Made by a program: the position numbers and the translations under genes. The notes beneath the pieces are model-generated. The model did no database searches. It was not told the DNA's origin and saw nothing but the letters and a program-made list of their open reading frames with translations. A stretch of 17,742 bases of DNA, from NCBI GenBank assembly GCA_048881705.1, contig JBHLSH010000078.1, positions 1 through 17,742 on the forward strand, written 5' to 3'. Of the stretch, positions 9,748 through 15,715 are shown one piece after another. Source of the stretch: Candidatus Heimdallarchaeota archaeon. GTDB lineage: Archaea; Asgardarchaeota; Heimdallarchaeia; Hodarchaeales; Hodarchaeaceae. Position 1 is the first letter of the stretch. Every line of letters begins with the position of its first letter.

Positions 9748-10629
9748 TTAGGAAAAAAGTACTTTCTCGAGCATTAAAGGTATTTCTTGAGCCTCAACTG
9801 GCATATAATATAATCGAATGTTTCCAAATCGTCTTAGCTGTCCAATAATGGGCTTAGTTAGCTGGAACAGGTGTTTTCGAGGGGTAATGATGATTCGTAC
9901 ATCTTTAACTTTGGCCAACAGAGGTATAAAGTTTTTTCCGCTAGTGGCCAAAAGATCAGACATTAGAATCAAAGTTTTATGCGAACTGATTTGAGTTTCA
10001 AGCTCCTTCATCGCGGCCTGGACAGCCAGAAAGATGTTTGTTTTTCCACCAGAGGCTAGTTCTATCAAACGTCGTATCATCTCTGTTGGTGTCATCCAGG
10101 AGTCCCGAAAACCTTTCAGAATGTCAGGTAAAGAATCAAATCCAATTATCGCTAGGTTGTTGAGATCGGTCGAAAGACTAAATAAAATCGATGTTAATAT
10201 GATTAGTCTAAGATGCTGCAAGACAGAATGTGATTTATCTATTAACAGGACAACAGGATAGTGGCGGCGTAACCTCCTGATGGATACTACGTGTTTATAC
10301 GTAAAATATAGATCCCCTGATTGGAGGTAGTTTTCAAGTGTTTTTTCTACGTTCCAAGGACGGCCTGGACTATAGGGGCTTGTTTCTGGATATCTATTTC
10401 TATCGATTTCCTTGAATATACGCATAGCCTGCCGATATAGCCTGGGGATAAGTTTCCGTAGTAAAACCTGCCTTTCTTCATATGAGTAATAGGGCCGCAG
10501 CTGAAAAACCAACGAACTGGATTCTAGTATAAGATCCAAGTGATCAGTGTCAAGAGGCAAAAGATTCACTAGAGTTCTGGGATAAACCTCTGAGAGAACT
10601 TCAATTGCAGGTATATTACGCTGCTTCAC
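9748..10629 (-). CDS. von Willebrand factor A (VWA) domain protein, CoxE/ViaA-like partner of MoxR ATPases; the true 5' end probably lies further upstream
   Basis: Complete MIDAS: LLIDKSHS (DxSxS, 10225-10239), GGKTNI (T) and LMSD (D). Adjacent to a MoxR-type ATPase. The frame remains stop-free upstream to 10854. Confidence 0.88.
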   Translation of the reverse strand: MKQRNIPAIEVLSEVYPRTLVNLLPLDTDHLDLILESSSLVFQLRPYYSYEERQVLLRKLIPRLYRQAMRIFKEIDRNRYPETSPYSPGRPWNVEKTLENYLQSGDLYFTYKHVVSIRRLRRHYPVVLLIDKSHSVLQHLRLIILTSILFSLSTDLNNLAIIGFDSLPDILKGFRDSWMTPTEMIRRLIELASGGKTNIFLAVQAAMKELETQISSHKTLILMSDLLATSGKNFIPLLAKVKDVRIIITPRKHLFQLTKPIIGQLRRFGNIRLYYMPVEAQEIPLMLEKVLFS

Positions 10630-10763
10630 AGCTTCCTTCGTAAACTCAATAGAAGCTTCAGGATCCAGCCGTTGTTGTAATTTATATTCATATATTCTTT
10701 CTAGAAGTGATTTCTTTGACTTTATCTCGGAAATCGTGTAATCATTCGACGCTATTGGGTATT

Positions 10764-11636
10764 TTAGCCGTTCTTCTTTCCTTTTTTTTTTACCTCTGGG
10801 AAAAAAACTGGCAATGCTAGGACTTCCAAACAGTCCTCTACGGATCGAGCTTCGTCAGAATGAGGTTTTACCTTTTTAGAAAAGACCGCATTTATGGTAG
10901 CAAAAGTTTTTCTTTGAGTTAGGGGGTGGTGGTCTAATAATTGGGTGAGCTGTATTGTTGCACGAATACTAGCCCCTGATTCAAAGATACCTGAAGTTCG
11001 TGTCTGCTCAGTAAACTCAACAGCTTTGTTAATGAGGGAATCATCAGTACACTGGGTCCGAAGGCGTACAATTTGTTTGGCTTCTTCTCCCGTTTTGTGG
11101 TTCAATCGAATAAGTATACATCGGTCAAAAAACGCTTCTGGTAACGGGTTTGTACCAACATAGGCAGCAGGATTAAGAGTAAATATTGAATAGAATTTTT
11201 GATGGGCCTTAACCCGAGATAGCTGTGGAATCTCTATCTGGCGTTCTGTTCTATCCATCGCAGCCAAAACGCCATTTATTGCCTCGCTAGGTGCCCTATT
11301 GACCTCGTTAAAGAAAAACAAGCCTCCTTCTTGCATGGCTTTAACAAGAGGACCAGGTACAAAACTTTTTTTGCCGAATCCTGACTGCATGACCAGGGGA
11401 GGGTCAAACCAACCCCGGAGATGGGTTATGGTCAGATTCTCGTCCCCATCGACACGATAAAAAGGGCGGCGTAAGGCATTTGCTATTGTCTTCGCAAGTT
11501 CTGTCTTTCCTGTGCCCGATTCCCCTTCAATCACTACTGCAATTTGGTTTTCAATGGCAGCGAGTACTAGCTGAATTTCAGTCTCCAGGCCCACTAGATT
11601 AAGTTGACATTCTCTTGTTATGGTTTCAATATCCAC
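10764..11636 (-). CDS. MoxR-family AAA+ ATPase (CoxD/CbbQ/NirQ-like)
   Basis: Walker A GESGTGKT, helix-2 insert region ending in PGPLVKAM, variant Walker B LFFFNEVNR, sensor I LNP, arginine finger FFDRC. GGAGTGA lies upstream of the GTG start. Confidence 0.92.
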   Translation of the reverse strand: MDIETITRECQLNLVGLETEIQLVLAAIENQIAVVIEGESGTGKTELAKTIANALRRPFYRVDGDENLTITHLRGWFDPPLVMQSGFGKKSFVPGPLVKAMQEGGLFFFNEVNRAPSEAINGVLAAMDRTERQIEIPQLSRVKAHQKFYSIFTLNPAAYVGTNPLPEAFFDRCILIRLNHKTGEEAKQIVRLRTQCTDDSLINKAVEFTEQTRTSGIFESGASIRATIQLTQLLDHHPLTQRKTFATINAVFSKKVKPHSDEARSVEDCLEVLALPVFFPEVKKKGKKNG

Positions 11637-11688: not shown

Positions 11689-13524
11689 CTAGTCATTTTC
11701 TAATAATGGTCGCTTTAATCGAACAGTACCTTGGTCTTCATCGAAATCTACCCATCCATCGGACTCAAGTTCTTTTATCAAGCGCACCGCAAAAACCAGC
11801 TGGATAGCAATGGTTTTTGCTAGTTCACCTACACTAGCATGTTTTATGTCTTGTAAGACGAAAAGAATCGCGTATTTCGGATTCTTAGCAAGATTAATAC
11901 GTAGAGTTTCCACTGCCGTGGAAAGTTTTTCGTTCTTAGCTACCAGCCGCTTTTGATTGCTCATCAACGACTCGATTTCGTCGCTCTTTCTCACTAGTTC
12001 TTTTGCTGAGTCCTCAAGCTTTCTTTCAAGGTTTCCTTTAGATTCCGTGATATCATCGATCTGTAATTGTAGATTCTGGAGTTGAACTTCATATAAATCC
12101 TTTTGGCGCTCAATTTCCGCTTTAACTCCACGAGAATCGGAGGCCTGTTTAGCGATTGCCTCTTGTCGTTGACGTATAAGTTCTAGATCGTTTTGGAGTA
12201 CATCTAACTCCCGCTCACGGGCTTTTACTTGAGACTGAAGATCAGAAATCTCTGATTTTTGTTGTTCGTTCTCGATTCTTGCATCGGCAAGTTGGTTACG
12301 CAATTTATCGCGCTCAGATTCAATAGAATCAATACGAAGGTTTTTCCCCTTCTGATCGATCTTTATATCCTCCACTTCGGTCTCTAGGGCGCGATTTTTC
12401 CTTCTTAGTTCTTCTACGGCCTCACTGGCTTCATCCAGTTTATTCTGAACCGTTTGGGTTCTCGCTGATTTCTCAGTTATTTCTTCCTTTAAGGCAGTAA
12501 TCTCTCCTCCCAAACGATTTGTAATCTCCCGAATTTCATTTTCTTTTTGATTTAACTGAGTTTTTACATTATCCAATTGGTTTTTGAGCGTTACGGCCGT
12601 TTGACTGGTCTCACCAGAGTCTAAAAGCAGATCCTCGTTTTCTTGTTCCAATCGAGAAATTTGTTCCTTCAGCTCATTGACGGTCGCCTCGTACATAGTT
12701 TTTTGCCTACTGGCCTCTTGGAACTGGGTTTTCAGTTGGTCAAGAGTTTCACCAAGTTTTTGATTTTCATCCTTGAGATGGATATTCTCCTCGGTATGGG
12801 AAACCAAAACCCTGTTCTCGGCTTTTAGGTTCTCGATTTCAATGTCTTTATTCGCCAAGGCAGTTTGGAGTTCTTCAATCTCCAGTCTTGTGGTCATAAG
12901 GGTGTTACCGACTGTTTCAAACTCAGCTTCAATTTTTTCGCGCTCTTTTCTGGCTTGCTTCAAATCTCGTTGACTTTCATCAAGTTGGGCCTGAAGCCGA
13001 TTAAGTTCTTGCATTTGATTCTCAATTTTCCCCGTGACCATCCCTGATTGACTCTTCAATTGCGCAAGCTCCTCATCTTTTTCGCCCAGAAGTATTTGAA
13101 GGTTTTCGATCTCCAGCTGTAAAGGCTGAATATCTGCCCCTTTGGCCTGAAGTTCGTCTCGTTCTTTCGAAACAACTTTTAGTTCTTCTCGAACCGTCTC
13201 CAGTTCTTCTAGAATATTTTTCATATCTTCTCCCGAAGCAAGCATCTCCAGTGAGATTTTTTCTATTTCCGTGTCTGCTAGATTTGTTAAGCTTTTAATT
13301 CCTTTTTTTGAGAATTCAGTGTGGGTTTCTTTGTTTAAGCTTAGCATCCTTTTTTTTAGTCCTTCAATGACATCCTCGACATCTTGGAGGGTATAATATG
13401 ATTTGGGCCTCTGCTGTAGGTTTTTAACAACTGATTTGGCTTCCAGAGAGATTTCATGCTCCATTCGACGAGCTTGCTGTGCAATACTTTGAATAAACAT
13501 AAGTTTGGGATTTTTATTTTTCAT
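11689..13524 (-). CDS. long coiled-coil protein (about 450 aa of heptad-rich E/K/Q/L sequence) with a C-terminal winged helix-turn-helix domain
   Basis: Near-continuous E/K/Q/L/R-rich helical sequence with almost no Pro. The C-terminal 65 aa (PKYAILFVLQ-SVGELAKTI-LVFAVRLIKELESDGWVDFDEDQGTVRL) follow the wHTH pattern. AGGTG lies upstream of the ATG. Confidence 0.85.
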   Translation of the reverse strand: MKNKNPKLMFIQSIAQQARRMEHEISLEAKSVVKNLQQRPKSYYTLQDVEDVIEGLKKRMLSLNKETHTEFSKKGIKSLTNLADTEIEKISLEMLASGEDMKNILEELETVREELKVVSKERDELQAKGADIQPLQLEIENLQILLGEKDEELAQLKSQSGMVTGKIENQMQELNRLQAQLDESQRDLKQARKEREKIEAEFETVGNTLMTTRLEIEELQTALANKDIEIENLKAENRVLVSHTEENIHLKDENQKLGETLDQLKTQFQEASRQKTMYEATVNELKEQISRLEQENEDLLLDSGETSQTAVTLKNQLDNVKTQLNQKENEIREITNRLGGEITALKEEITEKSARTQTVQNKLDEASEAVEELRRKNRALETEVEDIKIDQKGKNLRIDSIESERDKLRNQLADARIENEQQKSEISDLQSQVKARERELDVLQNDLELIRQRQEAIAKQASDSRGVKAEIERQKDLYEVQLQNLQLQIDDITESKGNLERKLEDSAKELVRKSDEIESLMSNQKRLVAKNEKLSTAVETLRINLAKNPKYAILFVLQDIKHASVGELAKTIAIQLVFAVRLIKELESDGWVDFDEDQGTVRLKRPLLEND

Positions 13525-13667
13525 GACTCTGCACCTGATTTTAGTTCTAATCTAGGGAAAGTAATTAGGAGAGATCAGGAATCTTTTCCACCAAATGAAG
13601 AGATGTAAGACCCGTGCTTTCTAGCTCTGAGGAGGTAACTAGACTTTACACCGTTTTTCTTTGGTAT

Positions 13668-14240
13668 CTATAATATATCTCTACTTATCTGTGTACTTTG
13701 TTTGGCCGATGTCCGAAGTAATTCAATCGATTTTTCGAACTCCATTAATCTGCCAATTACCAGATTGTATAGCGCAGTTTCAAGATAGGAGGTCTCTGCC
13801 TCTGGGTCATATCCAATTGCTTGAAGTAATTTAAAGTTCTGGTCTTTGACAGATTTGAGAAAAAACGGTAATTCTTCCAAATTCTTGGTTACTGCTTCTA
13901 ACACCTTAAGGGCGCTGCGTTCTCCTGTGATTAAATTCTGAATAAACGATTCAGCCTGTGGCAAAACCATAACTCGCAACCGATTACGAATATCAGCTGT
14001 GGTAAGAGTAGTATTTAAAGCAAGTTTCTTTGTCCACTCTACCATGATTTCATAATTCCTCAGACTGTTCTTTTCTAGCTTTATCCAGTTAAGTACTGTT
14101 TCTAATGATTCTTCAATTGCAACCAATCGACTATATTGCTCATCAGGCTCATATAATGATCCATGCAGATGTATGATGCCATCATACAACTCCTCCAGCA
14201 GGTCGTGGTATGATCTTTCTTTTTCTTCATTTGTGGCCAT
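13668..14240 (-). CDS. hypothetical all-alpha protein (190 aa)
   Basis: ATG-initiated ORF with natural amphipathic-helix composition, co-directional with the coiled-coil/AAA+/VWA genes. No motif recognised. Confidence 0.75.
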   Translation of the reverse strand: MATNEEKERSYHDLLEELYDGIIHLHGSLYEPDEQYSRLVAIEESLETVLNWIKLEKNSLRNYEIMVEWTKKLALNTTLTTADIRNRLRVMVLPQAESFIQNLITGERSALKVLEAVTKNLEELPFFLKSVKDQNFKLLQAIGYDPEAETSYLETALYNLVIGRLMEFEKSIELLRTSAKQSTQISRDIL

Positions 14241-14345: not shown

Positions 14346-14629
14346 TGCCCTTAGAAAACGGGATTAAATCAAAGACCTTTGACACCAAGCTCCCAAGTTT
14401 TATTGTTTCACAAGCAAGGCAACTGTACTCTGATTATTCTGCACAAAGAACATCTGGAGAACCCTTATAAGGAAATCATGCATTATTACATCTGTTACGA
14501 GAAACAGAGAATTTGGCAATGAAGAATAACCATAGTTGAGGCTTTAATTAAAACTTCGTAACTCTTATGATTTATTCATATAATGATTTTACCTCTACCT
14601 CTTGGTTGCTAATCCCAAGGGTAAGAAAC

Positions 14630-15715
14630 ATGGATATTGACTACTTCAAAGAAAATTTTGAACCAGAAATAACGAGGAGGTTCGAGAATAGAGAATTTCC
14701 AGGCATGGCGATTTCTATCATAGAAGATGGAGCAATTATCTATTCTTTTGGCCTTGGATTTCGCGACATAAAAAATTTCAAAGATTTCAACGCGGATACG
14801 CTCGCACGATTCGGTTCATGTTCAAAATCATTCACCAGTTTGGCAATCCTCCTCTTAGAAAACCAGGGAAAACTTTCAGTAGATGATCCCATAACTGATT
14901 ATCTTCCGATTACCACAAGCACTGGTACGGATGCTATCACCATCCATCACTTAATGACTCATACTTCTGGTTTGCCGGATATTTTTATCGATAGAATGGG
15001 ATACACAAGAGATGAATATTTAGAGCGTGTCACAAACATAATCAAGGACTCCCGAGCTGATCTGGGGAGATTCATATACTCTAATATCGGCTACTCCCTC
15101 CTTGCGATGATCGTGGAAAAAGCCTCCAGGAAATCTTTTGATGAAGCGATGAGAGGACTAATCCTCACCCCATTGAATATGAAGAGAACCATTATGTTAG
15201 GGGATGAAGAACTAGCTTCTATTGATGATAACCATAGCATCCCTTATATGCCAAAAAAGGATGAATATGGCAATTTGACTTTCACTAAATCCGAATATCG
15301 CTTTGAAGAATTTACTAAGGGACCAGGAGGCATAGTGACTTCGTGTAATGAAATGCTCATCTATCTTGACATGCTGATGAATAATGGATCAGTAGGCGGG
15401 AAAATAGTATTTAAACCAAGTGTTATTGCGAAAAAACTGTCAAGATACCTAAAGGATGAAAATCTGACAAAAATGCTGAAGACTGACTCATTCGAGGGCT
15501 ATGGCATTGGTATTAAGGATGGTTACAAAGGGCAAACTTTCATGAATACCGCCGGTGGAATAGTGGGTGGTATCTCTCTAATCGGCTTTTACAAGGAGGC
15601 AAAGATCGGGTTTGCCTGTATCGGAAATTCCGAGGGATTTCCTCTTATGTTCATATATGATGTATGGGATAAGATTCTAGATAACGACCCTGTATTCAAA
15701 AATTGGAACAAATAG
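14630..15715 (+). CDS. serine hydrolase of the beta-lactamase/penicillin-binding fold (class C/AmpC-like, D-peptidase/esterase-like)
   Basis: PGMAISII, catalytic SxxK (GSCSKSF), LMTHTSGL, YxN (YSN) and LTPLNM. No signal peptide seen. ATG 14630 (MDIDYF) is preferred over 14567. Confidence 0.9.
   Translation: MDIDYFKENFEPEITRRFENREFPGMAISIIEDGAIIYSFGLGFRDIKNFKDFNADTLARFGSCSKSFTSLAILLLENQGKLSVDDPITDYLPITTSTGTDAITIHHLMTHTSGLPDIFIDRMGYTRDEYLERVTNIIKDSRADLGRFIYSNIGYSLLAMIVEKASRKSFDEAMRGLILTPLNMKRTIMLGDEELASIDDNHSIPYMPKKDEYGNLTFTKSEYRFEEFTKGPGGIVTSCNEMLIYLDMLMNNGSVGGKIVFKPSVIAKKLSRYLKDENLTKMLKTDSFEGYGIGIKDGYKGQTFMNTAGGIVGGISLIGFYKEAKIGFACIGNSEGFPLMFIYDVWDKILDNDPVFKNWNK

Follow-up and report, generated by a model that had tools for sequence, protein, structure and literature searches.

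A conserved −1 register and A-run slip site suggest that a MoxR-type AAA+ ATPase and an AAA+-VWA fusion share one recoded gene in Hodarchaeales

A MoxR-type AAA+ ATPase and the VWA protein annotated behind it in the window (the whole 17,742-nt stretch of DNA analysed here) are very probably encoded by one recoded gene, which would yield a 290-aa ATPase and, through a −1 shift at an A-run, a 629-aa AAA+-VWA fusion. Recoding into an AAA+-linker-VWA chain had been proposed from a sequence-only reading of the window, and we find it supported because the −1 register is conserved, an in-phase A-heptamer accompanies it, the linker is under selection, the VWA frame has no conserved start (its called starts scatter) and natural in-frame fusions exist.

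The geometry on which that reading was built was reproduced on the sequence (Table 1). The VWA frame is open for 75 codons 5′ of the GTG at 10629, bounded by a TGA at 10855-10857; its −1 overlap with the ATPase end is 91 nt long, and a gap of 134 nt separates the ATPase stop from the GTG. The ATPase 3′ end reads GTT TTT TTC CCA GAG GTA AAA AAA AAA GGA, so that T_TTT_TTC and A_AAA_AAA both stand in the correct phase; the A10 run holds two tandem A_AAA_AAA heptamers, each of them in phase. Either a single added A or a single −1 slip opens a stop-free 629-aa translation with the junction FFPEV-KKK-RKEERL. The ATPase carries a Walker A motif (GESGTGKT), a Walker B motif (FFFNE; 11310-11296, minus strand) of the form hhhNE and not hhhDE, and an arginine finger (FFDR). 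The VWA domain matches Pfam VWA_CoxE and VWA_2 at cut-off and has a complete MIDAS (DKSHS, T, D), of which D-x-S-x-S, T and D are invariant in the VWA alignment.

Table 1 Features of the locus in window coordinates
Feature	Position	Strand	Remarks
Short product: 290-aa MoxR-type AAA+ ATPase in the zero frame	10764..11636	−	Pfam hits above cut-off: AAA_5 (75 bits), AAA_3 (51 bits)
−1 frame: linker, helical region and VWA domain	9748..10854	−	C-terminal part of the predicted 629-aa fusion
A10 slip site, GTA AAA AAA AAA GGA	10782..10791	− (plus-strand T10)	5 codons ahead of the ATPase stop
T_TTT_TTC heptamer	10800..10806	−	Phe-Phe codons, in phase
Slot of the GCGGG..CCCGC hairpin of relatives	10737..10781	−	Unstructured here
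Conserved coding segment 5′ of the annotated start	10630..10707	−	26 codons from LLERIYEY
GTG taken as start by gene callers	10627..10629	−	
611-aa coiled-coil protein with C-terminal winged helix	11689..13524	−	Directly upstream of the ATPase
190-aa helical protein	13668..14240	−	First gene of the conserved cluster

Register, slip site and linker across orthologues

We compared 28 distinct orthologous loci of Hodarchaeales, the window (L001) included. Homologues carry Hodarchaeales or Heimdallarchaeota labels, which places the window in an Asgard archaeon. The VWA frame lies at −1 to the ATPase in all 28, and it opens just ahead of an in-phase A_AAA_AAN that stands at most six codons from the ATPase stop, again in 28/28. 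By comparison, an in-phase A_AAA_AAN occurs in the last 7 codons of 45 of 2418 long ORFs (1.9%) in the genome at large. Beyond the orthologues, de-duplicated AAA/VWA loci of the wider family were found in most Asgard families sampled and also at loci labelled Thermoplasmata and Desulfobacterium; the VWA frame is at −1 in 104 and at +1 in 6, fusions number 12, and no locus has the two domains in one frame with a stop, counts that are not independent trials, as the loci share ancestry. Orthologue comparison had been suggested as a check along with the original proposal, and it recovered both a conserved slippery site with the same −1 overlap and fused homologues.

Two slippery sites had been claimed. 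The A-run was borne out, being conserved throughout the orthologue set; T_TTT_TTC had to be given up as a shift site, since a VWA-frame stop precedes the A-run in 12/26 placeable orthologues, including the closest relative, L002, and so separates the U-run from the A-run. A GAGGT beside the run was considered as a Shine-Dalgarno-type stimulator and rejected, as it is missing in the closest relative. All six +1 loci (L050, L087, L120, L124, L125 and L129) carry TTT TTT CGN near the ATPase end, resembling UUU_CGN, a +1 frameshift motif in viruses. The junction of L031 (83% identical) is as in G001, which genome search places in the window's genus; its Candidatus Thorarchaeota label is probably wrong.

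In-frame AAA-VWA fusions were found at L032, L051, L060, L067, L123 and others. L032 (1895-4653; Kariarchaeaceae) has a free ATPase gene and, behind it, an in-frame AAA-VWA fusion of 638 aa in which Walker A is decayed (GRSGSGKR); here the frameshift seems to have given way to duplication. A fusion with decayed Walker A behind a separate ATPase copy is the state seen in chlI plus chlD, and fused chlD beside chlI has been proposed to follow frameshifted chlD (PMC9227772). The AlphaFold model of the L032 fusion is of moderate confidence (pLDDT 69, pTM 0.40): the AAA and VWA parts fold, their mutual arrangement does not. Foldseek gave NorQ as its best match (E = 1.5e-15).

Selection on the linker was tested across 10 orthologue pairs. 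The 26-codon segment from LLERIYEY is under purifying selection, its pN/pS being 0.16 when read in the VWA frame, close to the 0.21 of the VWA body, against values of 1.05 and 2.98 for the other two frames; the 10 codons ahead of the LLERIYEY helix are weakly constrained (pN/pS 0.68). Start codons are scattered. In 13/24 orthologues, the window included, there is no ATG, GTG or TTG at or before the conserved helix; the position of the GTG at 10629 is a start codon in only 3/24; and the called VWA starts spread over ~100 codons, giving separate VWA proteins of 253-361 aa. Orthologous VWA proteins beginning at VKQRNIP, or relatives with stops in the interval, had been named beforehand as observations that would speak against a fusion, and neither was found. 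The GTG is probably an internal Val codon.

These results bear directly on whether the window holds two separate genes, with the VWA protein starting alone at GTG 10629, at a non-canonical ATA, ATT or CTG, or by re-initiation once the ATPase has terminated. In most known MoxR/VWA pairs the partners have a gene each, as the gene callers have it here with their stand-alone VWA proteins. A start codon does lie at or shortly before the conserved helix in 9/24 orthologues, and an ATG two codons before it is often present in the sister family, so independent initiation is possible there. Separate genes nevertheless fail to account for the invariant −1 register, the in-phase A-heptamer and the fused homologues, and they sit poorly with the scatter of called starts and with 26 codons 5′ of the GTG as constrained as the VWA body. 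We regard this arrangement as very unlikely, and one recoded gene as the better account.

Hairpin loss and long A-runs

In 23 of the 28 orthologues, a run of A6-A9 is followed 7-8 nt downstream by an invariant GCGGG..CCCGC hairpin (−10 to −18 kcal/mol); its stem requires CGG for Arg and CCC for Pro, codons with usages of 12% and 23% in the window's genome. We infer that the ancestral signal of Hodarchaeales was A_AAA_AAN with a hairpin 7-8 nt downstream, that is, a classic ribosomal −1 frameshift. The window departs from this design. While the claim of a −1 frameshift is supported as regards recoding, the window, unlike most relatives, has no 3′ hairpin (fold −2.2 kcal/mol, z +0.8; 151-nt region, z +0.44), and no Rfam match was found at its junction.

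The five loci without an intact hairpin carry long runs: A10 in the window, A11 in L002, A10 in L016 and L105, and A13 in L013. Four of them have lost the hairpin (L001, L002, L016, with its 5′ arm gone, and L105), and in L013 one substitution weakens the stem. Every run of at least 10 A among the 28 orthologues falls within these five loci, which represent four lineages; a single clade was rejected (AU p = 1.5e-4, on a quick tree and with the group defined from the trait itself). The branch-length-weighted probability that hairpin loss and long run coincide comes to ~3e-5; restricted to the three full losses it rises to 4e-4, and both figures are post hoc. The simplest reading is that a long run compensates for a lost hairpin: the stimulator goes and the run lengthens. 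This partition, with 23 loci of A6-A9 plus hairpin set against five of A10-A13 without an intact one, appears to be the new element of the present comparison.

Another element occurs in the sister family, where a kink-turn-like pattern lies 8 nt behind an A7 site in 14/14 loci (L022-L030, L033-L037) and the stem variants CC/GG, CT/AG and TC/GA preserve pairing. The pattern (tandem GA pairs, a 3-nt bulge and flanking stems) is absent in the window and has no shared match in the hairpin-type orthologues.

Long A-runs are rare elsewhere in the window's genome. Against synonymous shuffles, we counted 4 coding A-runs of at least 10 where ~43 were expected, a roughly tenfold depletion that begins at 9 (A9, 37 versus 83 expected; T9, 19 versus 56 expected). 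Three of the four runs are at AAA+/VWA junctions, namely the window's, that of a paralogue on contig C61 and that of a chlD-type gene on C1. Because of this concentration amid depletion, bare long A-runs would seem to be kept out of coding sequence unless having two products is of use, although the depletion may instead reflect replication slippage (PMC1088944).

The C61 paralogue (L155, G000:C61:18160-19956), whose group has DE in Walker B, is an in-frame AAA-VWA gene with A10 at the domain junction (C61:19047). Either shift there stops within 3 codons: one A fewer leads to TGA at once, and −1 to a stop three codons on. Its orthologues retain A10/A11 both where they are fused (in 3 genomes) and where they are split at −1 (in 4 congeneric genomes, with the same A10 as the paralogue), and no hairpin common to the C61 paralogue loci was found. 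The C1 gene (L153, G000:C1:9506-11880) is a true chlD-type gene, −1 split at A11 (C1:10666-10676); three of its orthologues are fused and three more are −1 split. Of the split three, one contains A10, another A7/A8 runs and the third no run as long as 7. The fourth coding A10 (L154, G000:C65:1394) is found near the start of an ORF resembling carbon-nitrogen hydrolases, behind a T7. A second MoxR-type paralogue (G000:C55:21235-23165) has CGT TTT TTA before its stop and a −1 VWA frame, with a TCCCG..CGGGA hairpin conserved in all congeners fetched.

Long runs are hypermutable (PMC1088944), and A10 might therefore mutate in replication so that cells alternate between split (A10) and fused (A11) alleles. 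The C61 paralogue, which occurs both fused and split and in which L133 and L135 differ by one A, would fit such phase variation. At the orthologous site, however, all five long-run loci (A10, A11, A13, A10 and A10) are in the −1 register, and the closest relative acquired its A11 by a T-to-A substitution rather than an insertion, with the −1 register retained. We consider alternating alleles still less probable than separate genes.

Less probable again is a decaying signal, in which the stimulator has been lost, fusion output is low and the VWA frame is turning into a pseudogene. The missing hairpin and the long branch to the window and L002 speak for decay, but the VWA frame is intact and 84% identical between these two loci, their linkers differ by pN ~0.17 against pS 0.40 (helix, 2/61 versus 3/17; small numbers), and each hairpin loss is accompanied by a longer run.

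Least likely of all is a sequencing or assembly error that hides an A11 and with it an ordinary 629-aa fusion gene: homopolymers are prone to such errors, but a second assembly carries the identical A10, the −1 register is kept in 28/28 orthologues, most of them with only A6-A7, and a search for longer, fused orthologues among proteins found none (weak evidence). That second assembly, the Logan assembly of SRR24270832, is 100% identical to the window across 2563 nt including A10, possibly from the same reads as the genome, and it is because of this agreement that we hold an error at A10 unlikely.

Predicted products and related systems

For the recoded gene, standard decoding would end 5 codons past A10 and release the 290-aa ATPase. 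Part of the time, the frame would move by −1 inside the A-run, and decoding would continue through linker and VWA domain to the 629-aa AAA+-VWA protein. With the hairpin gone and the run longer in the window's lineage, the run alone may drive the shift. Two routes would yield the identical 629-aa protein, and we give about half of the weight to an RNA polymerase that adds one A and a somewhat smaller share to a ribosome that slips on the tandem Lys codons. The polymerase route is favoured because a stretch of 9 A or T is enough for bacterial polymerase to slip efficiently, a property that Thermus dnaX exploits (PMC5009743), because depletion in the window's genome begins at 9 for both A and T, and because ribosomes slid little on A9 and A10 in an E. 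coli cell-free system, with robust sliding on A11 (PMC4363877); the last result also weakens a ribosome-only route at A10. Ancestry, the two in-phase heptamers and the −1 register of all long-run orthologues argue for the ribosome. Chelatase cassettes in E. coli shifted at 63% with 11 A, 40% with 9 A and 10% with 7 A (PMC3711429), figures that do not separate the two routes. Our literature search found no study of archaeal polymerase slippage.

It is possible, if short of probable, that several switches have occurred in Hodarchaeales from hairpin-stimulated ribosomal −1 frameshifting to stimulator-free polymerase slippage on at least 10 A, with such runs at three AAA+/VWA genes of the window's genome setting subunit ratios. 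If so, these would be conserved, productive transcriptional slippage events in archaeal chromosomal genes, and they would offer a natural series in which hairpin, kink-turn and bare-run signals can be compared at one site.

The closest known parallel is frameshifted chlD (fs-chlD) of Mg/Co chelatases (Antonov et al. 2013, PMC3711429; Kuznetsov et al. 2022, PMC9227772), which likewise has an AAA+ domain followed by a VWA domain at −1, an A-rich slip site and fused homologues, and in which a short and a long subunit come from one gene, as predicted here, with reporter efficiency rising with A-run length. The window's ATPase differs in being MoxR/GvpN/NorQ-like and not ChlI-like (TIGR02442 21 bits, TIGR02031 32 bits, against 456 and 226 bits for the genome's own chlD-type gene on C1); the window also has neither a 3′ stimulatory structure nor a chelatase large subunit among its neighbours. 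It would thus work like fs-chlD and is, by these scores, not a member.

A second parallel is dnaX, where short and long AAA+ ring subunits arise either from a structure-stimulated ribosomal signal or from a bare long run: E. coli uses ribosomal −1 frameshifting at A_AAA_AAG plus a hairpin, and in Thermus thermophilus the polymerase slips on a run of 9 bases (PMC5009743). Like the T. thermophilus gene, the window has a run of at least 9 (A10), and such runs are avoided in other coding sequence. Unlike dnaX, the window's predicted long product requires the shift, the gene is archaeal, and the swap of signals is seen in four lineages of one genus-level group.

MoxR AAA+/VWA pairs (NorQ/NorD, CbbQ/CbbO, CoxD/CoxE and RavA/ViaA; PMC13036017) share the AAA_5/AAA_3 ATPase and the MIDAS-bearing VWA partner. 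Their partners are normally separate genes, whereas the VWA domain of the window would be reachable only through the ATPase frame, and most of the window's family has NE instead of DE in Walker B. Midasin/Rea1, also an AAA ring with one MIDAS tail, was the top PDB sequence match, but it has six AAA modules per chain against the single module of the window's ATPase. We found no support for a midasin ancestry other than general kinship, as the match is a summed score (best module 46 bits, NorQ 31) and the fold search ranks NorQ first. Saccharolobus solfataricus fucA1 is, like the window, an archaeal chromosomal gene with A_AAA_AAN in a −1 overlap; it is split in few strains and has an unrelated function, whereas the window's site is conserved across its family and beyond. 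According to a 2021 review, a single chromosomal −1 frameshift had been demonstrated in archaea (PMC8211752, also our source for fucA1), and our literature search, which reached few subscription journals, returned no paper on MoxR-type AAA+/VWA recoding or on Asgard frameshifting. If recoding holds, many Asgard VWA proteins would be mis-annotated truncations, and the two-product logic of AAA+/VWA genes would reach beyond chelatases. The cis signal would be interchangeable among a hairpin, a kink-turn-like element and a bare long A-run, providing matched natural cassettes for archaeal slippage.

By analogy with NorQ/NorD and ChlI/ChlD, the free ATPase and the fusion may form hexameric rings together, in which the VWA tails, present on a minority of subunits, would remodel a client. 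Neither a chelatase large subunit (ChlH/CobN) nor an established MoxR/VWA client was found among the neighbouring genes. A candidate client is the 611-aa coiled-coil/winged-helix protein encoded directly upstream, the C-terminus of which is present in the Hodarchaeales orthologue loci and not beside the sister-family copies. The gene pair for the 190-aa and 611-aa proteins (11689-14240) is conserved. Upstream of this pair, six relatives have hypF, where the window has a gene that is beta-lactamase-like by sequence motifs (14567-15715, opposite strand).
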